Shown here piece by piece: positions 9,570 through 20,916 of a stretch of DNA of 64,000 bases. The DNA lies in contig OY761556.1 of assembly GCA_963664705.1 (NCBI GenBank), positions 1,920,001-1,984,000 of the forward strand, read 5' to 3'. The translations under genes were made by a program, and so were the position numbers. Every line of letters starts with the position of its first letter. Within the stretch, counting starts at the first letter, position 1. A model generated the notes under the pieces. It made no database searches. It saw only the letters and a list, made by a program, of their open reading frames with translations, and was not told the origin of the DNA. This stretch comes from Acidobacteriota bacterium (GTDB lineage: Bacteria; Acidobacteriota; UBA6911).

Positions 9570-9614
9570 TTTCGCTCGTTGCCCGAGGCTTATGGGCAAC
9601 AGCCTCGTTAGAAT

Positions 9615-9687
9615 GGGCCGTTAGCTCAGTCGGCAGAGCATCTGCCTTTTAAGCAGAGGGTCGTTGGTTCGAGTCCAACACGGCTCA
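9615..9687 (+). tRNA. tRNA-Lys (anticodon TTT); 3' CCA not encoded
   Basis: Acceptor stem gggccgt/acggctc, D arm gctc/gagc, anticodon arm tctgc-ctTTTaa-gcaga, T loop gttcgag. Confidence 0.97.
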
Positions 9688-9690
9688 TCA
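9646..9690 (+). repeat. attL core (3' half of tRNA-Lys)
   Basis: cttttaagcagagggtcgttggttcgagtccaacacggctcatca, identical to 19488-19532. Confidence 0.95.
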
Positions 9691-9704
9691 CACAAGCACA
9701 ATCC

Positions 9705-9777
9705 AATCAAACGTTTAGCCATTCTGAAATCTGCAGGCTTCTCTTGTTTTGGCGTCACTGTGCCCTGAATTGTGCCC
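9705..9777 (+). promoter_or_regulatory. attL arm: IHF box plus tandem integrase arm-type sites
   Basis: AATCAAacgtTTA (9705-9717) fits WATCAANNNNTTR; TGTGCCC at 9759-9765 and 9771-9777. Confidence 0.7.
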
Positions 9778-9866
9778 TAGGAGGCTATGTATGGTCCTTT
9801 GGTTTTCTCATAATGGAACCACAGGTGGCGTAACCTTAGATAATTGAGCAAAATTTGCACATTTGA

Positions 9867-12065
9867 TCACTCAACACCAAAAACAGCATTGCGTTGAACT
9901 ATTTGATTCGACCTGCTTTCTTTGACGGTGACACGCAATTCATAGATGCCTGGATCCAAACTGCTGAGATCCATATCATCGTGAACCTCAAACCATCCTT
10001 TGCTATCGACCTTTGTCTCGTCCTCGAAGATTGCAAGCCAAGGCTCAGCCTTGACCGCCTTTCCTCCCTTTAGCAACTCACGCATGAACACTATTTCCGC
10101 ATCCTGTGAGGTAGTCTTTCCTGGATGTATGCGGAAGGAATATTCGCAGAATATGTCTCGCCCATATAAAGGGATCCCTTGGGCTATTTTGATTTGCTCA
10201 AGGTCCCTCTTATCATCTTCACCTAACTCAGAATTCTTATTAAGTGGATTTCGTAAGATAATGCTGCTCATGTCAAATTTTTGATTCTCAGGCTCTCGTA
10301 CGTCAACCCAGGCGGTGGCGGTACCAAATTTATCGGTTCCTTCTTCCCGAATCCCGATGCGTGCTTGATAAACGCCCGGTTTAAGAAGCAGCCTTCGCGA
10401 AAAACGGTATCCATTATTCTCGGCTTGCGACACACGTTCTGGCGTCAGTTTCCCGTTCACGGTTGCTGAGATCGCTTCCACCTGCTTAGATTCAGCATCA
10501 TAGATATAGCTAATAATTTCAAATCCGATATTTGCAGTCTGCCTTTGTTCCGTTTGTGTGGATTTGTACCCTTCAAAATCGATTGTCAGGGTCACATTCT
10601 TGTCATCGGACTGGTTTGTCATGAACTCTGATGTTGCCGAAACATTCAATTGATTTAGAGAGTATCCAGCATTAATGGAATTAATTAGGCGTTGATGCGG
10701 CGAAATTACAGCCTCACTTTCAGATTTGCTTTTTAACGCAGAGGGATAGAACCCGCGGGCCGTTTGGACCGCATATTCGGGATGATTTCGAACCCGCAAC
10801 CTTATTTTTCTGAATTTTTGACCGTTGTCGTTGGCTTGCAAATAATAGGCAAGAACATAGTAGTACCGATTTGCGTCTAGAGCCTCATCAACCAATCGAT
10901 CAATGTTATTCGTTGCACCAAACAGTTTTCCGCCAGTTTCCTGTGCAATTTGCGAGAGTCCATTCAATTCTTCGCGTTCGGATAAGCTCATAATCCTATT
11001 TATTTGTCCAGGGTCTGGTGCCTCGCAACGAGGCTCTGTTGTGCCATTACAATTTGTTTCGACGCTATCTGGGGTAGAAGACGATCTATTCTTTCCTGCG
11101 TCAACAGTTGGTGGAATCTGTAGGCCCTTCGCATCAATGGCATAGACCGCCACTCCTGATTTTACAGCGAGGTCGATAATCGGTCGAAGTTGATCAGAAT
11201 GAGTACCGGAGTCGTTGTCATAAAGGGTAAACCCGTCCGAAAAGATGATTATCATCTTTTTCCCCGGCAGATTGATCATTTGTTCTGAAAAATCCCTAAT
11301 AGCAGAAACGGTACTTTTGCGATAAAAGGATTGTTCGGAAAGCACCTGCAAAGCTCTATTGCGTGCAAGCGTCCGTAGCATGCAGCAGTCCCTGAGGTTT
11401 TGCTCACCCCTTATAAGATCTATCGCTAGTCTGTAGTCATCCACTTGGTTTGCAAGAACTCCGGCTGCCAGGAGAGGCGTAAATGCTTTTTCAGAGCCGA
11501 TTGGACCTAGACGAATTTGCTCAATAGCATAATTGAGCAGTTTTTTATCTTGCGTAAACTGCTGGGCGATTCCGAGGGTCTGACCGCTGGTTGCTATTGC
11601 AGCCATGTCTCGGTCAGTCATCCTAACAGATGTGAAATGTCTCAGAGCTTCCTTCACGCGATTGAGACTTGAGATTGATAAATGCAGAGTATCAACAAAA
11701 AGTAACGTACTCCTGTCGGGAGTTTGGCTCTGCTCTTTTTGTGTGACATGGCCCAAGCGCGGTTCATTTTCAACGCTACCTTGCTTTTTTTGATTATCAT
11801 CCAGCCTGGAGATGTTAAAGAAACTGATCTCCTGCGGTTTTTCATCTTCATATAACTCAAAGTCTTCCTTTTTGAGATTTTCAACCACATGGCCTGAACG
11901 ATCCAGAACAACTGTACGCAACTGCATAAGTTCTGTTTTGGTCTTGATCAGCAACCCTTCTTGCTTCTCTATGGAGCCGTTCTGTGCTGCCGTCTCCCTG
12001 GTTTCATATTGCATAGCTACAAAAAGTGCTAAACCCAGAGTACAGAGGATACGATAGTTGATCAC
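9867..12065 (-). CDS. Large exported VWA domain protein (island cargo)
   Basis: GTG start after GGAGGGG; signal peptide; V.DRSG..VENLKKEDF.LYED, FVDTLH, GKK.II.FSDGF, VYAIDAKGL, ETGG, YYVLAY. Confidence 0.85.
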   Translation of the reverse strand: MINYRILCTLGLALFVAMQYETRETAAQNGSIEKQEGLLIKTKTELMQLRTVVLDRSGHVVENLKKEDFELYEDEKPQEISFFNISRLDDNQKKQGSVENEPRLGHVTQKEQSQTPDRSTLLFVDTLHLSISSLNRVKEALRHFTSVRMTDRDMAAIATSGQTLGIAQQFTQDKKLLNYAIEQIRLGPIGSEKAFTPLLAAGVLANQVDDYRLAIDLIRGEQNLRDCCMLRTLARNRALQVLSEQSFYRKSTVSAIRDFSEQMINLPGKKMIIIFSDGFTLYDNDSGTHSDQLRPIIDLAVKSGVAVYAIDAKGLQIPPTVDAGKNRSSSTPDSVETNCNGTTEPRCEAPDPGQINRIMSLSEREELNGLSQIAQETGGKLFGATNNIDRLVDEALDANRYYYVLAYYLQANDNGQKFRKIRLRVRNHPEYAVQTARGFYPSALKSKSESEAVISPHQRLINSINAGYSLNQLNVSATSEFMTNQSDDKNVTLTIDFEGYKSTQTEQRQTANIGFEIISYIYDAESKQVEAISATVNGKLTPERVSQAENNGYRFSRRLLLKPGVYQARIGIREEGTDKFGTATAWVDVREPENQKFDMSSIILRNPLNKNSELGEDDKRDLEQIKIAQGIPLYGRDIFCEYSFRIHPGKTTSQDAEIVFMRELLKGGKAVKAEPWLAIFEDETKVDSKGWFEVHDDMDLSSLDPGIYELRVTVKESRSNQIVQRNAVFGVE

Positions 12066-12185
12066 ACTCTTTCCCCTCCAAAGAAAACAACTTGCGGCAA
12101 CGCAGTTCAAAGCTTAGAGTATTCTTAAATTGAGATTCAAAAGACAAGCTGTAAGTTCAAAGAAACTCAAAAAGGGGGATATAAA

Positions 12186-13160
12186 ATGTTTGTCAAATCA
12201 AGCATGTGCTTGTTTTTCTTTATCATGCTTATTTGTCAGCTTGTTATGACGAATGCCCCTGCACAAAACCTGCCAACCGGTAACCTTTCGCGGCTTTCGC
12301 AAGCTCGAGCATTGACCGCTCCTGAAAAACAAATGCAGGTGCTTCCTAAAGATAAGACCGTTGTCGACATGGATTCTAAAGAGTTGCACCGATATTTCCC
12401 GTCCGAGCTCCGACGAGTAACCTTCGACCTGAACCAGGACGTATTAAGCTCAATAATGGAAAAAACGGGAGAATGCGTGCAAGCGTTCTTCAAAGATTTT
12501 GCAAACACATCCTCAAAAGAGGCTGTTTACCTGGAAAAGCCGGGGAATAGCGGCAGCACTAGTCGTGAATTCAGCTACTTGATTGTTTATCATCCTGATG
12601 CGAACAAGCCATTACTTGAGGAATATAGGACCGATAAACAAAATCATCCGATTGCTCAGAAGGCACTAAAAGATGTTTTTATAACGTCCGGTTACTTGGG
12701 ACTCAGTTTAAATTTTCATCCTGCGTATCAGCAATATTCTCGTTTCAGGTATTTGGGAACTCAGGCATCCGATCCTCATGCTCTTATCATTGCCTTTGCC
12801 CAGAAGCCAGAAATGAGAGATCTGCAAATCGAATACACTGATACCAATACTGGAAACAGGTTCCGTCTTCCAATACAGGGAATTGCATGGATAGATCCAA
12901 GCTCTTTTCAAATATTGCGTTTGCGCACAAACCTCCTGGGCATGGGAAATCAATCCTTCATTTCGGAACAAAGCACCGATATTAAGCTCGGCGCAGTCCG
13001 CTTTGAGGAAAATCAGAAGCAGTTATGGCTACCACGCGAAGTTATGGTTATGACTCAAATCTCCGGTTATGTTTTTCGAAATCAGCACCGCTATTCTGAC
13101 TACAAATTGTTTGCTGTTGATAGCGACTTCACAATTGACAAGACAAAGCCAGGCAAATAG
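12186..13160 (+). CDS. Exported hypothetical protein (island cargo)
   Basis: RBS GGGGGA; signal peptide; C-terminal G.AWIDP..FQILR ... LWLPRE ... HRYSDYKLF, a pattern I associate with Acidobacterial exported proteins. Confidence 0.8.
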   Translation: MFVKSSMCLFFFIMLICQLVMTNAPAQNLPTGNLSRLSQARALTAPEKQMQVLPKDKTVVDMDSKELHRYFPSELRRVTFDLNQDVLSSIMEKTGECVQAFFKDFANTSSKEAVYLEKPGNSGSTSREFSYLIVYHPDANKPLLEEYRTDKQNHPIAQKALKDVFITSGYLGLSLNFHPAYQQYSRFRYLGTQASDPHALIIAFAQKPEMRDLQIEYTDTNTGNRFRLPIQGIAWIDPSSFQILRLRTNLLGMGNQSFISEQSTDIKLGAVRFEENQKQLWLPREVMVMTQISGYVFRNQHRYSDYKLFAVDSDFTIDKTKPGK

Positions 13161-13209
13161 GACTGCATTAAGACATCAAGATCCCGGAAACGGCTACATA
13201 GCAAATTAC

Positions 13210-14316
13210 TCATCTAGACATTGAAAAGGCATCCAGACGCACTGCTGCATCCCTGAGATCGCCCTCGGACACGATGTTGTATCTCTCAAACACGGATCTT
13301 GTTTTGTGGCCGGTCATCTTCATCGCAACTCCTTCCGGCACTCCTGCTCTGACTAGGTTTCGGACAGCTGTCCTCCGGAAGTCATGCACCAGGCGGCCGG
13401 GGACTCCCGCCGCTTTGCACGCAGCTTCCCAGCTATGTTTGAAGTCGACGAATGGTCTGCCTTTCCGAACCCCTTTGGTATAGAAGAAGACCCAAGGCGT
13501 GATGATCCCTTTTTCCTTGAGGCCATCTGCCCGAGTCCTCTGCAGATTCAAGACGGCCTCGAGTTCATCAGTGAAAGGGAAGACTCGTCCCTTCCGGTTT
13601 TTTGTGGTGCCGACATCTAGGATTACGACCCGTGCCTCGAAATCGACCTGGCGCCACTGCAGTTTGAGGATCTCATTCTTGCGCCATCCGGTGACATAGG
13701 CAAACCTTGCCACCGGCTCAATGCGGCTGCGAACCTCTTTGCCGCCGCTAACATCAGGAAGATGCTTTAGGACGGCTTGGAACTGGTCAAGTTCGAAAAA
13801 ACCGGTCCTCACGTTGTCCTCCTTGAGCATGGTTATGTGAGGCCGGTCCGAGACTATGCGTTTCTGGATGCCAAGGGAGAAGGCGCGCTTGATCGTAGCT
13901 AGTTCGCGATTGATGCTTGCATTGCTGGATCCCTCTTCTCTCCGCTGCAGGATGTAGTCGTCAATGGTGGTCTCGGTGATCTGCGTGACCTTCATCTTCC
14001 CAAAGAATGGAATAATGTGAAGCCTATGCCGCAACTCAATGTCAGCAGCAGACCGATAGCCATTCAGTTCGTAGTCCTTCTCGACGAGCGAAGCCAGTTC
14101 AGAGAATATGACCTTGCGCTCAAGGCTCTTTGTCGGACGTCGCTTCGTCGCCTCTCCCTCACGTTGCTTCAAGTACTCTTTTGCTTCCGCGTAGTCTGCC
14201 GTCCCCGCAGTCTCGCGGATGACGCGACCGTGTGAGTAGTACTTGATCCACCATATGGCCAAAGTCCGCTTTTTGCCATCCTTGTCTTTGAATGTTCGTC
14301 TGAACACACTTCCCAC
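13210..14316 (-). CDS. Tyrosine recombinase / phage integrase
   Basis: GTG start after AAGGAG (MGSVFRR...). Catalytic R (GWRKNE), K (TTKN), HxxR (HDFRR), H (GHKT) and Y (ERYN) are all present. Confidence 0.96.
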   Translation of the reverse strand: MGSVFRRTFKDKDGKKRTLAIWWIKYYSHGRVIRETAGTADYAEAKEYLKQREGEATKRRPTKSLERKVIFSELASLVEKDYELNGYRSAADIELRHRLHIIPFFGKMKVTQITETTIDDYILQRREEGSSNASINRELATIKRAFSLGIQKRIVSDRPHITMLKEDNVRTGFFELDQFQAVLKHLPDVSGGKEVRSRIEPVARFAYVTGWRKNEILKLQWRQVDFEARVVILDVGTTKNRKGRVFPFTDELEAVLNLQRTRADGLKEKGIITPWVFFYTKGVRKGRPFVDFKHSWEAACKAAGVPGRLVHDFRRTAVRNLVRAGVPEGVAMKMTGHKTRSVFERYNIVSEGDLRDAAVRLDAFSMSR

Positions 14317-14720
14317 GTGGGTCTCCTTTATTTTCAAGGTGGATTTAATGGGATTCGATATTAGAATCGAGGGAGCCATGTTTCCTTCCACCAAGGAGTC
14401 ATGGTTAGGGGCTCACCTGGCGCTCAGAACGCCAAGTAGCCCCGTAGCGCGAATTATGTCGTGTTGCTTTCTGCAAACCTGCTCTAAAACGGCCCAGGGC
14501 GCGTGAAGTCCCGAGGGCAGTGGCGGGCCAACTCGTAGAATTGACCCGCCCGTTGCAGGGTTCCTGCTCTGCACAGTCGGCGCATGGCTGAATGCGATCG
14601 CCGAAGCCGCATCTGGGATCGTCCCGCCCCAACATCGGAAAGAACGGAACACCGCCCAGCCCGGAAGAACATCTGTGGCGGACCCCGATGTGTCGTCGGA
14701 GCCCGCCTTGGGCACTTTTC

Positions 14721-16034
14721 TTATCGCTTGCCGAGGACCACGCACCAACTGAGCGAGTCGCCATTTTTCGGAGTTATCGCAGCGTTCCACGTTCCTTTGC
14801 CGTCAACCCGCATGATCGCGCGATAGGCCTTTTGGTCCTGTTGCCAGCCAACATGTATTGAGGTATCGAGCGTGACCTCGCGCCGCATGCCGACTGCGTA
14901 CTGGGTAAAGTCGACCAGCGCGATATCGCCCTCAGAACCGAGCGCAGGCGCCTTCTCCGTGAAAACACAGGGCCTCGTCAGGATTGAGAATTGACCATTG
15001 CTTTGCGAGAGAACCGGAACAGGCGCACCGGCATCTCCGATCACTTGATAAAGCTGGAGCAGCTGCGGGATACACGTTGAGTTCGCGAGCCAGATGCTGT
15101 TGGCCAGGCACTGCGGAGCAAGTCTGGCAAACATCTTGGTGAGATTGATGTAGTTGATGGTTGCGGCATTTTGATTCTGCTCTTTCGCGACGACAATTCG
15201 CGCCGGATCGCGGAGTGCGCCAAGCGGCTGGCCGGCTCCGGATCCGTTCAAAAAGCTATGATCAAGAGCCCAGCCGAGGGTTTTGGTCATTGCGGCATTG
15301 ATCTGAGCCTCGAAGCCCAGGCCATCCTGAACCAGCTCATTGGACGCGCGGCAGAACGCGGCCAACTTGTTCGCCTTCAGGCCGAGCAGGAGGAGTTTCC
15401 CGGTGACGTCAGCAGCCTCGCCGTTCTCGGGCAACCACTGCGCTGATATTCCGCCGAACAGGGAATTCGAATGGTCTTTGCTGTCCCATCCCGGGATCTT
15501 CTTGGTGTCGGACGTCATGGGCCAAATCTGGCATCGCGATCTAACGATTTCGTCCTCGAGCGACGAGTCGAGCCAGGTTGCGCTCAATTCTTACGGAACG
15601 GCATAGCCACCCAAAGCGTCATTGCCTTCCTGTTGAACTGATGCTTGGATAAGCCGCTCGTCAAATCTGCCAGAACTGACGGCCGCCAGGAACTCATTCC
15701 CATCGCGGAATGCGGATCCCCTGATCGTGCCGAACATTGCGGAGAACGTGCGTCCCGTAGCCGGACCCTTAAACTCCTGGCTCAGATCGACCTTGTAGAA
15801 GTGGCCGTTGACGTCCTGCCGGTACTTGACCACGGGAGTTGCTTGGCGTTCGCGTTCCATCTCCTCCTCCCACGCAGTGATTGCCTCCTCATTCCGGGCT
15901 CGCGCCGCGTGCAGCTCGTCGATCTTCGCCTTCTGGTCGGCGGTGAGCGTTTCGCCCGCGCCTGCGAGAATCTGGGAGATCTGATTTTTAATGACAAGAC
16001 GCCGTTGTCTTAGGTCCTTGATGTTTGCCGTCAT
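14721..16034 (-). pseudogene. HK97-family phage major capsid protein interrupted by an in-frame TAA (15593-15591)
   Basis: The 147-aa and 288-aa ORFs share one frame and read ...GGYAVP*ELSATWLD.... N-terminal coiled-coil delta domain; W..E, KL.A....SNEL..D, FLNGSG.GQP.G, GDI.L.DF..Y, RVDG motifs. Confidence 0.88.
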
Positions 16035-16244
16035 AACTAAGTCCTTTCACGCCCGCATAGGCATATTTATATATTGTGAGTTGTTGGATTTATCACTGCG
16101 TGGCGGGCGGACAGGTCTCAACGGAGCCTGTGCCAGTCGTTGCACTCGGGCAGATCGTGGCGTCTACGGACCCACTCGCTGCGAGTGCCTTAAGCTGTGC
16201 TTATCCTAACATAAGAATAAATTCTAATTGAACTATAAAATGTA

Positions 16245-16466
16245 TTAATTCATAGAATTTCTTTCCTCGACCTTTTTTGCCACGACAGCCGGGAGTCCAG
16301 CTATCACCTGCTTAACACCGAGGAAGAGCCTGCCGCATGCTTTCCAGTTCCCAGCCTCAATAAAGCGGCGGAATGCGTCCGCCAGCAACACTGGGATCGC
16401 CTCCTCCTCGGGCACTTCCAACCCATCGTCATTGCCGTCCTCAATTCGCATGTCGATCATCCCCAA
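16245..16466 (-). CDS. Small hypothetical protein (island)
   Basis: 73-aa ORF co-oriented with the island backbone; no recognisable motif. Confidence 0.5.
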   Translation of the reverse strand: MGMIDMRIEDGNDDGLEVPEEEAIPVLLADAFRRFIEAGNWKACGRLFLGVKQVIAGLPAVVAKKVEERNSMN

Positions 16467-16650
16467 TTAATGTTGTTTTAACCCCGTTTTATGCTCGGGA
16501 TTTTAGGCTGTTTCAGCACTGTTCCGATGCTGCAGGACATTGACTCGATCACCGTAACCGTTTCTGATGCGGATAGATCCCCCGGAATCCGCGTATCCTA
16601 TTCACCGGTGCATCTGAGGCGTAATGCCCATCTGACCCCCCGGTTGCTGA

Positions 16651-16728
16651 TGCGGGAAACTTTCGGGGGCCTTGCGCGCCCGGTCTGCGGCCTTACCTTC
16701 CTAGATATTGCAGGGGCCCTACCGCCCT
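16651..16728 (-). other. Putative cos-like packaging site
   Basis: Minus strand reads GGGCGGTAGGGCCCCTGCAATATCTAGG...GCAGACCGGGCGCGCAAGG...GAAAGTTTCCCGCA. From memory this resembles the G-run / AAATCTCT / GACCG layout found upstream of terS in HK97-like cos phages. Confidence 0.4.
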
Positions 16729-16842
16729 AGTTGGGTAAACAACTCTACGATTGCCGAAACCCTCGTCCTAAACTCCTTCACCGGTTGCCTGACTACCGGA
16801 TCGGTACGATGCTCGTAAAGGTCTCCTTGGATTCCGTCAATG

Positions 16843-17019
16843 GATCGTCTACGGGATCGTCTGCGCTTATATAGAAAAGCATCATAGACAGTCGATTGGA
16901 CGTTACACTTCGTTCCACGTCCATATCGCCTCTCTGTACCCGGCTGATAGTCAATAGATGTAAAAGGCAGTTCAGACGATTTAGTCATTGTAAAGACTCA
17001 TGTTGGATTCGATTGTCTG
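16843..17019. repeat. Iteron-like GATYGTCT repeats around a CTTATATAG core (putative replication origin)
   Basis: gatcgtct at 16843 and 16855; inverted agacagtc (~16886) and agacgatt (~16974); gattgtct (~17011). Located at the 3' end of the helicase gene. Confidence 0.5.
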
Positions 17020-18534
17020 AAGCCTCTCGGACACCTCAGACGGTATGATGCGATACTGCGTCGCCGATCCTTTACCCTTCCTCTCAACCTTTCCAGCATC
17101 GAACAGCCCGGAGAGATGCTTCGCTACCGTAGCCCGTGCAAGCCCTGTGCCCATCGAAATTTCCTTTGGCTGTGCCCAGGAACCGGAAACAAGAGCGAGC
17201 GCGTCCAGCACCTTCTCCTTGTTCTTGTCACCCACGATCTTCATGTTCTTGGCGATTCGCTCGACGTCACCGGCCCATGTGAACTTCGGTCTGCCGGATC
17301 CCTTGGGTGACATGTCAACGAAAAAACTCGGCCGGTCGTCGATGTCCTTGTTCTCGGAATAGACATGGAGCCGTCCCTCCTGCGGGGTTCTCGCAAGGCA
17401 GATCATGAAATCGGCGCAACCATATTTGCCGATGCTGCCCTTGAGGTCGAACGGGTTTGGTTCCTGGCTATCACGCCCGAGGTTCTTGCCGATAGGCTTG
17501 CGGGTGTGGTCGACGCACAGAATCGTTACGCCCAGGTCCCGGTTGACCTCCTCCAGGATGGAAACCATCTTCGCCATGTCTTTCGCGTTCGACTCGTCGA
17601 GGTCCGGAATCATGCGGTTCAGCACGTCGAGGATCAGGAAGTCGAACCCGTTGTCCCGTACCTGGCTCTTCAGCCAGGCCAGGTGCGCGGCATCAGTCAG
17701 GTTCATCCGTTCGCGGACGAGGAAACGAAGTCGGCCTTCGGATGGATAAGGCAGGAGATCTCCATACCCTTTCGTGATTTCCTCAGCACGCTCCTTGAGC
17801 CTATAGACAGGATCTTCGCGAGCTATATAGAGGACACGAGAAGAAGTGACGACATACTTGCCCAGCCAGAGGCGCTGCTGCCGAGGCTGCGCCAGATGAA
17901 ATGCGGCGTCCTCGGCGAGCAGGCTCTTGCCGGTCTTCGGCGCCGCGCTTAGGAACCCTATGCTGCGTTTGGGGACCAGTGGTTCGATTGCCCAATCCGG
18001 AGGAGAGGTGGGCATGGACTTGAGACTTGATGCGTCCAATAGCTGCCAGGAGATTTCCTTGCCTCGGAAAGCTGTGGCCTCGGCGAGCGACTTCGCCAGC
18101 GCCGCCTTCGCTATTTCAACGGAACCGGTCCCACCGATAACTGCCTGAATAAAGGCATTCGCATCTGTGACAGCCCGCCGCATCTGCGCGAGTCGGACAA
18201 CTCGTTCAGCATAGACTCCCACGGCCATTGCGCGTGCTACGCCGTCCGTAAGGCTTACCAGCATTGCAGCCCCGCCGACCCGTTCAAGATCGCCGGTGTC
18301 CTGCAGGTCGGACTTGACCGTCACAAGATCGATTGGGATCCCGGCGCTGGCAAGCCTGAGCATGCTCTTAAGCACAAGCCGAAGAGGCTCCTGATAGAGA
18401 TCAGAGAAGTCGAGCCCGGTGCTCAGAGCCTCTTCCATCTTCTCTGGGGCGACGAGTATCCCGCCGATCAGGCTGCGCTCGGTTTCAGGATCATGAGGGA
18501 GTAGACCGGTGACGGCAGAGTGGGCAGTCGTCAT
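16981..18534 (-). CDS. Replication helicase: DnaB-like N-terminal domain + AAA_25/RepA-type ATPase + C-terminal wHTH
   Basis: PHDPETERSLIGGIL...PIDLVTV...LERVGG (DnaB-N); AAPKTGKS Walker A; FLILD Walker B; DHTRK; C-terminal helix-turn-helix. Confidence 0.88.
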   Translation of the reverse strand: MTTAHSAVTGLLPHDPETERSLIGGILVAPEKMEEALSTGLDFSDLYQEPLRLVLKSMLRLASAGIPIDLVTVKSDLQDTGDLERVGGAAMLVSLTDGVARAMAVGVYAERVVRLAQMRRAVTDANAFIQAVIGGTGSVEIAKAALAKSLAEATAFRGKEISWQLLDASSLKSMPTSPPDWAIEPLVPKRSIGFLSAAPKTGKSLLAEDAAFHLAQPRQQRLWLGKYVVTSSRVLYIAREDPVYRLKERAEEITKGYGDLLPYPSEGRLRFLVRERMNLTDAAHLAWLKSQVRDNGFDFLILDVLNRMIPDLDESNAKDMAKMVSILEEVNRDLGVTILCVDHTRKPIGKNLGRDSQEPNPFDLKGSIGKYGCADFMICLARTPQEGRLHVYSENKDIDDRPSFFVDMSPKGSGRPKFTWAGDVERIAKNMKIVGDKNKEKVLDALALVSGSWAQPKEISMGTGLARATVAKHLSGLFDAGKVERKGKGSATQYRIIPSEVSERLQTIESNMSLYND

Positions 18535-18824
18535 CGGGCCCCCTGCTCAGCTTTAAGCCGTTCGATCAGCTTGTCGCAATCCTCGCGATCAATGAGGAGT
18601 TTGTTCATGGTCCGTTGGCGAGGCCTCGCAATGACCGTCTTGTTCTCACCGCGAATTTTGGCACCGGGCAGTTTGACCGGAGTGAGGATCCCGTCTGCAA
18701 TGTAGTCGCGCACCGACTGCTCGCCTACTGAGAGATAGGCTGCAGCCAAGTGGATGTCCAGCAGCCGCGGCCACGTCAGCATCGTCAAGCCGGCACGGGA
18801 AGATCGGCCGAGACGATCATTCAT
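18531..18824 (-). CDS. Excisionase/AlpA-like HTH (HTH_17) DNA-binding protein
   Basis: PRLLDIHLAAAYLSVGEQSVRDYIADGIL; start and stop overlap both neighbours. Confidence 0.8.
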   Translation of the reverse strand: MNDRLGRSSRAGLTMLTWPRLLDIHLAAAYLSVGEQSVRDYIADGILTPVKLPGAKIRGENKTVIARPRQRTMNKLLIDREDCDKLIERLKAEQGAR

Positions 18825-19050
18825 GGGAACCCTCCCGGAAGAGTTCCGGAAATAAAAACTGGGGATCCGCACTCAGAACCTTGCAGATCTTCTGCGCTTG
18901 TTCATGGGTGGGAAGGGCGCGGCCGGTCTCGAAATAGGAGATATCCGGCTGCTTGAGGCGCACGGCTCGTGCGAGCTGGGACTGGTCTAGTCCCTGCATG
19001 ACTCTTGCTGCACGGAGTCTACGGTTTATCGTAGAACACTGCTTCTTCAT
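18817..19050 (-). CDS. XRE/Cro-type HTH transcriptional regulator
   Basis: LRAARVMQGLDQSQLARAVRLKQPDISYFETGRALP. Confidence 0.88.
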   Translation of the reverse strand: MKKQCSTINRRLRAARVMQGLDQSQLARAVRLKQPDISYFETGRALPTHEQAQKICKVLSADPQFLFPELFREGSHE

Positions 19051-19357
19051 GGTACTTCACGGTCTCCAAACAAAACCCAGTTGGCGGAGCATGCGCGAGC
19101 GAGGCATGCAACGCCGGGGCTTAATTTATCAGGCCGCGAAGAACCGATCGCGGCGGCTATTGTGGAAAGTTGCTTAAAGCCGCATAAAAGCGAACCAGGC
19201 GGGAATGCACTGGAAGGATTCTAACCTTTTTGTTCAGTGTAAAGCGGATTCCATAATATATCTTGCGATATGGATGTCCAGAACTTTTTGGGCCGGGACC
19301 AACCATCGACACTCCGGGAAAGAGAGAAGTCCATGCCGTAATTATCTAACTTCCTAT

Positions 19358-19469
19358 TGTGCCCAGAAGTGTGCCCAGGCACATCGGATGATATCGAAAA
19401 ATATCAGGAAATAGCAGAGAGGTCACAGAATGCCGCTTTGTGGATTAGCGCTTTGGTATCAATATTTTG
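19358..19469 (+). promoter_or_regulatory. attR arm: tandem integrase arm-type sites plus IHF box
   Basis: TGTGCCC at 19358-19364 and 19370-19376 (same 12-bp period as at attL); TATCAAtattTTG at 19457-19469. Confidence 0.7.
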
Positions 19470-19487
19470 GGCTTCGGTGTGGACGGG

Positions 19488-19532
19488 CTTTTAAGCAGAG
19501 GGTCGTTGGTTCGAGTCCAACACGGCTCATCA
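19488..19532 (+). repeat. attR core (duplicated 3' half of tRNA-Lys)
   Basis: 45-bp exact repeat of 9646-9690; the tRNA 5' half is absent. Confidence 0.95.
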
Positions 19533-19896
19533 TGATTCCGCTCCACCTCCGAATGCCGCCGTCGTATTGCAGGATCATCTCCTTTCCAACCCTTCCGCGA
19601 ATTCCGAATAGATGAAAACCGCAGGAATTGCCAAGGCGGAATAAGAAGGCAGTATCTGACCAATCTCCGCCTGCTCATAAGAATTACGTTTTTAAGCTGC
19701 GCAGCTTGGTACGGAAAGTTTGGACGCCTTCCACTGACTGGTTTTATCGGAAGTGGCTTCTTTTTATGTTTGGCTATATTCTATTTACTTGATTAACTGC
19801 AATCTCTTCGGGTGTCCGCTTATAGGAAGTACCAGCGGCGGTGTGCGCTGCGGACATTGTGGGATTGGACCACTTAAAAACCTAATGGGAGTCACT

Positions 19897-20916
19897 ATGC
19901 CAGTTCGCCTTAATCGCAAGTCAGGTGCCCTCTCACCTTTGTTCATTTGTATGGTTATATTTTTTGCCATCGAATTCGCTCATGCTCAAGGAGGATGGAG
20001 ACTAGTCCGAACTGAAGAATTCCAATCGCCAGTCTACAACTCCGCAGCCGCCCCCACTAATATGCGCGATCCCTACTGTTCCCAGCACACGATTGATATC
20101 GGTCCCGGCCGTGACACCCGAGCCTTCAGCATCAAAGAGGTCATCCCCGGGAACTGCCATAACAGAGCCGGAAGTCGGGGGGTACAAGCATTCAGTCATC
20201 AATGGACCAACCCTCCCGCAGTATTGCCGGCAGGTCAGGTAATGCCGTTCACGCTATCTTCCAAAGTAGTAACTGTTGAGAATATATCGAATGGGCGTGG
20301 AAGTTCTGGGGTATATGCCGGTTTTCTTGACTACAACCAGCCCAATGGCCCCTATGGTCCCGGATCTAATGAACCAACTTACAAGATTGCTACCGTTGTT
20401 GCCGAAGGACCGGCAAATGCCGGAATGGTCTTCAACAATGAACGGGCCGAGAAGCCTTTCATAATGCCTCCACATCCATGGATGGGGAGTGACCGCAATA
20501 ACGGACAAGTTCGTTTTCGTATCTGGACTACGCATGTTGCCCCTTGGCGGGCAGTAGATTATATCTACAAATGGGATCCCTCCGTTTCAACCGGTGCGGC
20601 CCAATCGACAGCAAATAGCTCAGCCTGGCCGGGTCAGATTTGGAAGGTAAGGGAATCTGCTCCTGATGGCCGCTATTGTGATGGAACCTGGACTCGGATC
20701 GGCAACACGAATCGATTCTCAGGAGAGTGGACCTGCTCTTGGGGTGCAAATGTTAAAGATAATCTTACAATTCATCCTCTAAAGGGGAACCAAGTCACTG
20801 TGCTCCGCGAAAGTCTGGGCGAAAACTATCGGGGTACCTTATCGGTTGATGGCAGTACCATTGATGGGACCACGTGGGGGGCCGGCGGAAAATGGAAAGT
20901 CCAGATTCAAAAATAA
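19897..20916 (+). CDS. Exported hypothetical protein
   Basis: Signal peptide ending AHA-Q; Gly/Trp-rich beta-type C-terminal domain. Confidence 0.75.
   Translation: MPVRLNRKSGALSPLFICMVIFFAIEFAHAQGGWRLVRTEEFQSPVYNSAAAPTNMRDPYCSQHTIDIGPGRDTRAFSIKEVIPGNCHNRAGSRGVQAFSHQWTNPPAVLPAGQVMPFTLSSKVVTVENISNGRGSSGVYAGFLDYNQPNGPYGPGSNEPTYKIATVVAEGPANAGMVFNNERAEKPFIMPPHPWMGSDRNNGQVRFRIWTTHVAPWRAVDYIYKWDPSVSTGAAQSTANSSAWPGQIWKVRESAPDGRYCDGTWTRIGNTNRFSGEWTCSWGANVKDNLTIHPLKGNQVTVLRESLGENYRGTLSVDGSTIDGTTWGAGGKWKVQIQK

Follow-up and report, generated by a model that had tools for sequence, protein, structure and literature searches.

Among the described phage-inducible chromosomal islands (PICIs), 11capE and EcCICFT073 carry a capsid gene but no terS, and are presumed to use the cos site of a helper phage (PMC10111431, PMC6893505). 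VEIMEs (integrative mobile elements encapsidated in virions) mostly lack capsids, and capsid-forming PICIs (cf-PICIs) such as EcCIEDL933 possess an HK97-type capsid of their own. We analysed a candidate satellite in the genome of an Acidobacteriota bacterium (assembly GCA_963664705.1, contig OY761556.1, positions 1,920,001 to 1,984,000 of the forward strand; this stretch of 64,000 nucleotides is hereafter called the window). The element is an island at positions 9646-19532 of the window, and its capsid gene is the main subject of what follows. A first-pass annotation of the window, made by inspection of the letters and open reading frames (ORFs), had described it as a helper-dependent satellite supplying only a capsid-fold protein and a packaging signal.

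Based on sequence comparisons, the reading that we favour, at a probability of roughly 0.5, is that the island is a PICI-type satellite whose own capsid protein would form a small head, possibly of triangulation number T=3, on the portal, protease, terminase and tail of a helper phage, and that it would be matched to this helper through the N-terminal tip of the capsid protein.

A capsid tip resembling that of the candidate helper

It had been suggested to look for an HK97-like prophage elsewhere in the genome, and one is present, a helper candidate: an element of 58,291 bp at a tRNA-Ser gene (G000:C1:2539705-2598055, with a 60-bp att repeat) which carries genes for a P27 TerS, TerL, portal, capsid, connector, tail-like proteins and a decoration protein, with open head and tail frames. 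Its S49-type protease is putative, the label having come from a local profile that contained that very protein. This prophage also contains inserted ORFs of great length, in two blocks (1,605 and 1,714 aa). The genome holds two HK97 head modules besides the island capsid, and PF04860 and PF03354 match only these two elements. The second is a cf-PICI-like element of 10,089 bp at a tRNA-Val gene (L008, G000:C1:1035014-1045103), with integrase, primase, HNH, TerL, capsid, protease and portal genes, in which a tail gene was not found; it was considered as a helper and rejected, its capsid being very distant and its sequence giving no cos match.

The island capsid gene (16034-14721 on the minus strand, 437 codons; PF05065, TIGR01554) falls into two parts with conflicting affinities. 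Residues 1-66, coded at 15837-16034 on the minus strand, score 165 against the capsid of the 58-kb prophage, 106 against the prophage capsid of a congener and 91 against the best member of the satellite's own family, where the median over 326 capsids is 31; by the core of the protein, the same prophage capsid ranks last of 120. In the tip, 37 of 60 aligned residues are identical to the prophage capsid (47 of 65 nt at the DNA level), and identity to the helper capsid drops from 0.56 at the tip to 0.34 in the core. Such an excess of tip over core is at most 0.05 in 118 helper-clade and 115 satellite-clade proteins. In sliding windows run with 120 helper-clade capsids, it is the helper clade that is favoured until about residue 85, and the satellite clade from there on. 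The trees conflict in the same manner: the core separates satellites from helpers with a support of 100, while the tip places the window's protein among helpers (91, not starred). A second relative, P0006, shows the same swap, its tip grouping with two other helper-clade capsids (97). The identity of 47 of 65 nt implies that the swap is old or that the donor was a relative of the resident prophage. Searched alone, the tip had no match in the 5.8-billion set, and among 50% representatives it retrieved, besides the window protein itself, only two weak matches to unrelated proteins; neither result is informative.

In HK97, residues 2-66 form trimeric coiled coils that touch the portal (PMC10275583). 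The AlphaFold model of the island capsid (pLDDT 81.9) matches the HK97 fold with no fold element lost, and predicts helices at residues 5-25 and 32-65, ahead of the fold. PF05065 is the only Pfam match, there is no encapsulin domain in the protein, and the genes around it code for an integrase and a helicase, with a cos-like site. It is likely that the island spread as a satellite of the lineage to which the 58-kb prophage belongs.

The copy in the window is however damaged, which the first-pass annotation overlooked when it credited the island with supplying a capsid protein. An in-frame TAA at codon 148 (15591-15593, minus strand) splits the frame into ORFs of 147 and 288 aa, at a position where a residue is present in 39 of 39 aligned homologues. 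The same stop base is found, with zero differences, in Logan contigs from four runs, all of a single sample that is perhaps the source, making an assembly slip unlikely; contigs from a second sample cover the island in patches that do not include the stop position. The capsid is disrupted in only 11 of the 202 related loci (it is intact in the other 191). Since the rest of the island is intact, the stop looks like a recent inactivation, and the island copy is probably capsid-dead, which makes it a poor experimental model. Excision joints, which it had been suggested to look for, are absent from the contigs examined, whether attP or attB; the contigs end at the repeat. Contig depth (7.6 against 6.8 and 7.2, and 15.8 against 18.2 and 15.0) is not a copy number.

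Portal-less relatives of about 9 kb

An alignment of 40 capsids was used to fetch 80 loci from genomes, 78 viral ones and 80 from metagenomes. After 36 viral loci at 23-31% identity had been left out, 202 loci were analysed, which together with the window make up 140 groups at 85% identity. A portal or TerL gene is present in 34 of these. Att-like or terminal repeats delimit 47 groups, and 42 of these groups, the window included, carry neither portal nor TerL. These 42 units have a median length of 9,259 bp, 38 of them measuring 8.0-10.4 kb; 32 lie at tRNA genes, and, with phylum taken from record titles, they span eight phyla. As a control for ascertainment, we considered the 34 groups whose flanks reach 9 kb or more on each side. 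A portal or TerL gene is present in 14 and absent from 20 (window included), and 19 of these 20 are att-bounded units. A PHROG scan of 150 of the 160 unlabelled larger ORFs of relatives gave no portal, TerL or protease. The homologous loci are thus not consistently prophages of 30-50 kb, in support of the earlier proposal of a helper-dependent satellite that is no prophage remnant. Five relatives are whole circular contigs of 8,181-9,665 bp, so circular forms exist within the family. A scan of viral contigs with a single protein found no relative.

Gene content varies around this common size. Across the 42 units, TerS is found in 21, a small decoration-like gene in 15, a tape-measure-like gene in nine and HNH in one. 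Local profiles detect no TerS, HNH, protease or tape measure in 14 of the 41 relatives; later scans of 13 of these 14 added a tape-measure-like gene in L031 and an ambiguous TerS/excisionase match in L046, so that about 12 relatives appear to be as minimal as the window. TerS has been gained or lost repeatedly in the capsid clade, with at least six forced changes. The integrase gene follows the capsid gene in 18 of 38 relatives and precedes it in 20, and lies within 600 nt of an att site in 36 of 38.

Within the same capsid clade, 14 cf-PICI-like groups are monophyletic; they have HNH, TerL, a protease-capsid fusion and portal, and the four of them that are att-bounded measure 9.7-10.4 kb. Since the clade serves these elements too, its capsid can probably form whole shells. 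The closest relatives with context are portal-less, and full prophages are more distant, their capsids being mostly 35-41% identical. For the portal-less elements, monophyly is neither shown nor rejected (p-AU 0.146). Contigs of 8.5-10.5 kb carry 20 of 119 satellite-clade capsids against 4 of 119 helper-clade capsids.

A number of loci depart from this general layout. In a Clostridial branch (30 loci, among them L027, L029, L032, L107, L109, L199 and L207), an IS110-family recombinase gene within 1.5 kb after the capsid gene replaces the tyrosine integrase. L107 (9,665 bp) and L111 (8,181 bp) are circular with this recombinase included, L109 and L032 have tandem units of about 7.5 kb, and Acetivibrio mesophilus N2K1 has several copies. 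A tape-measure-like or HK97-gp10-like neck gene occurs in portal-less L105, L128, L233, L221, L252, L047, L068, L135, L183 and L240, and the presence of such genes in portal-less members suggests tail remodelling. A tandem pair of capsid-like genes is seen in L140, L141 and L146. L257 is a circular contig of 9,539 bp with capsid, portal, S49-like protease and HNH genes, in which TerL was not found, and in L314:8606-12719, L317:1829-5717, L044, L083 and L089 the helicase or capsid gene adjoins TerL, with no portal in the stretch examined.

Closer to the host, the search for related capsids came up empty: none of 50 other genomes of the host family has a satellite-clade capsid, the two matches obtained either adjoining portal/TerL or sitting on a 3-kb contig. 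Nor is the element present at any of the six tRNA-Lys loci fetched from relatives. Integrase fragments do follow tRNA-Lys in relatives (L320, L323 and L324), which marks the site as an integration hotspot. The host family also has capsid-less tRNA islands with a related helicase (L312:5214-14227, L313:56-8376, L315:5096-18786 and L316:7051-16140). Two of these siblings have an integrase (51%) and an Xis (46-58%) in common with the window; TerS is found in three, and a clear cos motif in one.

Packaging, head size and rival explanations

The region of the 58-kb prophage between its HNH and methylase/terS genes aligns with positions 16633-16736 of the window (minus strand, with an identical 11-bp core at 16676-16686) at a score of 86.5, where the best of 100 shuffles reached 78.5 and the best of 175 genome chunks 79; the identical 11-mer itself occurs seven times in the genome. 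BLASTN of the island against the genome or the prophage missed this match, its best prophage match being the 5' end of the capsid gene. With training members counted in, a motif profile built from the family reaches at least 8 bits on the capsid strand in 21 of 42 units; its best match lies 100-1,300 nt upstream of the capsid gene in 23 of 42. The seeds were selected for resembling the sites of the helper and the island, so this support is not fully independent. In phage records the motif lies within 45 nt of the record end in 7 of 18 matched records (five distinct phages), and it spans the ends of SfV and Lunar, between the HNH-position and terminase genes, which argues that it marks the cos region. 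The cos-like site proposed by the first-pass annotation therefore stands as an alignment to the prophage above the null; by the family profile it does not, as the window's best motif, which like that of relatives lies upstream of the capsid start (by 705 nt), has 4.1 bits where the null maximum is 13.4, and the site is thus degenerate.

The narrow size range of the family bears on the head. EcCIEDL933 packs 15.5 kb in a T=4 head, and scaling this by volume gives 10.1 kb at T=3, near the family ceiling of about 10.3 kb. For T=3, Luque et al. (2020) put the range at 8.1-17.1 kb, and for T=4 at 13.2-24.5 kb; tailed T=3 particles were predicted there, but reported missing. On these lengths, the family possibly uses a small T=3 head.

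The sequence of events that we propose would run as follows. Upon induction of the helper, the island would excise and replicate, as its integrase, Xis-like and helicase genes and the circular relatives lead us to infer. Recombination would have brought a helper-like tip into the satellite capsid with the shell retained, and this tip would recruit the helper portal and probably the helper protease too. The TerS, TerL and HNH proteins of the helper would cut the helper-like cos site and package unit-length DNA into a small head, T=3 by volume scaling, to which helper tails would attach, with cargo filling the unit to size. The copy in the window would no longer make shells and could at most be packaged passively through its cos site.

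Several observations weigh against this scheme. The tip tree rests on only 72 columns, and its AU test is marginal (p 0.045) for a group picked after viewing the data; 11 of 288 family N-termini, a minority, score at least 120 against this one helper clade; and inspection by eye of the nine of 36 other genomes that have a second capsid gene revealed no comparable tip match (the other 27 have no second PF05065 capsid). Regarding packaging, the phage-end matches of the motif have weak E-values, and the window's own site scores below the null, as described above. As for size, the capsid-less siblings measure 8.3-9.1 kb in three of four cases (the fourth, 13.7 kb) and the median PICI is 9.5 kb long (de Sousa; measured differently), so unit size need not stem from an own capsid. 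P4 (11.6 kb) uses a T=4 head, so under-filling occurs, and six island units amount to 101% of the helper genome (ratio 5.92) and would fit the helper head. Furthermore, the capsid gene of Gram-negative PICIs is reported to be dispensable, EcCICFT073 travelling as concatemers in full-size heads (PMC10111431, PMC6893505), and Ccm, the capsid homologue of SaPIbov5, forms no shells alone (PMC8569155).

These points can be arranged into two competing explanations, both of which we consider unlikely but neither negligible. The satellite capsid could co-assemble with helper subunits into a mixed shell, the matched coiled coil joining the scaffold trimers and steering assembly to a small head. Ccm, which has a delta domain, fills only pentamers and needs the helper capsid protein (PMC8569155), would be the precedent; a helper-matched coiled coil suits hetero-trimers as well as it suits portal contact, and a decoration gene, present in the helper and in 15 of 42 relatives, is missing from the island. 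A shell only 34% identical to that of the helper is harder to reconcile with co-assembly, as are the complete HK97 fold predicted for the protein and the fact that the clade provides the sole capsid of cf-PICI-like elements. Alternatively, the island may be an ordinary PICI of the Gram-negative type, with cos concatemers travelling in normal helper heads and a capsid gene that is accessory, serving interference or nothing at all, and hence losable. That capsid genes of such PICIs are reported unnecessary for transfer and that 11capE and EcCICFT073 manage with a helper cos and without terS both fit this account, as do the capsid-less siblings of the same size, the six-unit ratio and an island that is intact save for the stop. 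It does not readily explain why 191 of 202 loci, spread over eight phyla, have an intact capsid, why a length of 8-10.4 kb is kept in different hosts although their phages are unlikely to have the same head size, or why contigs of 8.5-10.5 kb are richer in satellite-clade than in helper-clade capsids.

The stop codon invites a further interpretation, in which a free 147-aa scaffold mimic sequesters the helper portal or redirects assembly, with or without re-initiation at a TTG. The product does correspond almost exactly to the scaffold domain, with its helper-like tip, and a TTG lies two codons after the stop; yet the split is not conserved among the homologues, only 11 of 202 loci are disrupted (break positions not compared) and the downstream product would lack the N-arm, so we regard a functional stop as very improbable. 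We give equally little credence to an immobile, decayed remnant of a prophage or cf-PICI that has lost its head and packaging genes. The nonsense codon and the degenerate cos site would be expected of such a remnant, and portal-bearing elements and full prophages do occur in the same capsid clade, but the att pair is perfect, the integrase, xis and helicase genes are intact, the nearest relatives with context are portal-less and 41 other bounded units of like size, some of them circular, share the layout. The family data largely refute this reading.

We thus retain the small head built by the satellite on a helper portal as the favoured reading. In a broader and more doubtful form, which we offer tentatively, it would extend to the entire pan-phylum family: its members would build T=3 HK97 heads of their own on a stolen portal and change helper by recombining the N-terminal portal-binding coiled coil while keeping the shell, one Clostridial branch using an IS110-family recombinase instead of the integrase. 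If true, the proposed mechanism would explain the lone capsid gene of many PICI-like elements, reviews having left the role of the capsid in PmCI172 and EcCICFT073 open. It would also provide a sequence-level rule for helper specificity, namely the scaffold tip that meets the portal, and fill the step between capsid-less PICIs and cf-PICIs inside one capsid clade. Acetivibrio mesophilus N2K1 and Planctomicrobium sp. SH664 would then be cultured candidates for the predicted tailed T=3 particles.

Gene content of the island and comparison with known systems

The boundaries and backbone agree with the first-pass description. A perfect 45-bp direct repeat (attL, 9646-9690, and attR, 19488-19532, both read on the plus strand; spacing 9,842 bp) overlaps the 3' half of the target gene, a tRNA-Lys(ttt) identified by ARAGORN at 9614-9689 on the plus strand, a locus kept in 29 of 29 genus relatives. 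On the minus strand there follow, from the attR side, an XRE-family regulator of 77 aa (18817-19050; PF01381 (HTH_3), PF13560), an Xis-like HTH_17 protein (18531-18872; PF12728 with an E-value of 7e-4, phrog_66) with 46-58% identical homologues in related islands, and a replication helicase of 517 aa (16981-18534) with DnaB-N, AAA_25 and C-terminal helix-turn-helix parts (PF00772, PF13481). PHROG primase/helicase matches to this last protein cover the ATPase part only and it has no Pfam primase domain, whereas D5-type primases are present in many relatives of the island. Beyond the cos-like site lie an orphan ORF of 73 aa (16245-16466), the capsid gene and an intact tyrosine integrase of 394 aa (13210-14394; PF00589, phrog_1). 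The orphan has no Pfam, PHROG or NCBIfam match, a weak atlas match and no homologue among the collected loci; it is not TerS-like, and neither are the other small island ORFs by Pfam, PHROG and local profiles.

The scanned island ORFs (and, with local profiles, all ORFs of at least 50 aa) gave no match to portal, TerL, TerS, protease, connector, tail or lysis genes, bearing out the absences noted earlier; nor did the island scans find holin, tail or cf-PICI genes. One tape-measure match, on the capsid coiled coil, is non-significant (E 0.068). The replication origin that had been placed next to the helicase gene could not be substantiated, as no iteron array or clear origin was found in the island, and a promoter scan remained at chance level.

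The core of the island is about 6.3 kb, and cargo brings the total to 9.84 kb. This cargo fills the 3.5 kb from the integrase to attL with two low-GC genes of host type, a 747-aa Acidobacterial VWA-domain protein (9867-12110, minus strand; TIGR03436, 212.9 bits; many chromosomal paralogs) and a 324-aa protein of an unnamed Acidobacteriota family (12186-13160, plus strand; six chromosomal paralog matches at 21-37%, atlas clusters matching at 0.96-0.97). Their GC content at third codon positions is 0.44 and 0.45 respectively, against 0.63-0.69 in the core genes. An Acidobacteriota host is likely also from PurA, which among five genomes compared was nearest, at 59%, to one of Acidobacteria UBA6911. 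The long distance between integrase and att, which had been regarded as a peculiarity of the element, is real here but due to these cargo genes, and is not shared by most relatives. Just beyond attR, a 387-aa ORF (19753-20916, plus strand) has no Pfam, PHROG or NCBIfam match and no paralog in the genome.

In a formal classification the island would probably be filed as a PICI of type B: the SatelliteFinder PICI model accepts four of five core genes and type B may miss one (de Sousa), and the island has an integrase, a capsid gene that is present but interrupted by the stop, and no TerS, a gene that half of the units (21 of 42) possess. Part of the family may already be in the tables of de Sousa et al., since PICIs in Acetivibrio are mentioned there. 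Among top-ranked literature matches, taken from titles and abstract openings with supplements aside, we found no account of this family, of a scaffold-tip swap in a satellite, of an IS110-driven capsid satellite or of an Acidobacteriota satellite; the Charybdis preprint, which was considered, is unrelated.

The proposal that the element fits no known satellite family is not supported. With 11capE, EcCICFT073 and PmCI172 the island shares a unidirectional arrangement (int, regulator, replication, cos, capsid) over about 10 kb, and its order is that of PICIs with attP on the other side of int. It differs from Gram-negative PICIs in having no AlpA match (the regulators matched are XRE HTH_3 and HTH_17) and no primase domain, and its family differs in forming a distinct capsid clade over eight phyla, in having attP on either side of int and in the helper-derived tip. 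SaPIbov5 with its Ccm is alike in combining a helper-like cos with one HK97-fold capsid homologue that has a delta domain, in lacking TerS and in an HK97-like helper head cluster (PMC8569155). Ccm, however, turns a prolate head into a T=4 one and makes no shells alone (PMC8569155), whereas the island unit is about 9-10 kb, its clade also serves cf-PICI-like elements, and it is the tip and not the shell that matches the helper. An own HK97 capsid is shared with the cf-PICI EcCIEDL933 (15.5 kb in a T=4 head), but portal and TerL are missing from the island and its 41 bounded relatives.

Two recently described groups come close in other respects. The 'twilight' HK97 mini-genomes (Aguilar et al. 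2026, PMC13669383) are circular and about 8.75 kb long; they carry capsid, integrase, regulators and a helicase or Rep, and likewise have no portal, terminase or tail. A satellite lifestyle has been proposed for them. Their main group has encapsulin-domain capsids and comes from the human gut, where the island capsid has PF05065 only, and the sections of that paper covered here name no helper, cos site or scaffold swap. The EPIPs of Mycolicibacterium (PMC12822802) are 11-kb satellites with TerS, a tape measure and small heads, and 9 of the 42 units likewise carry a tape-measure-like gene. Their serine integrase and head-tail genes have no counterpart in the island. As a capsid and cos without TerS are already known from Gram-negative PICIs, we regard the island as a new variant and not as a new class; its novel and testable features are the scaffold tip matched to the helper and the ceiling on size.

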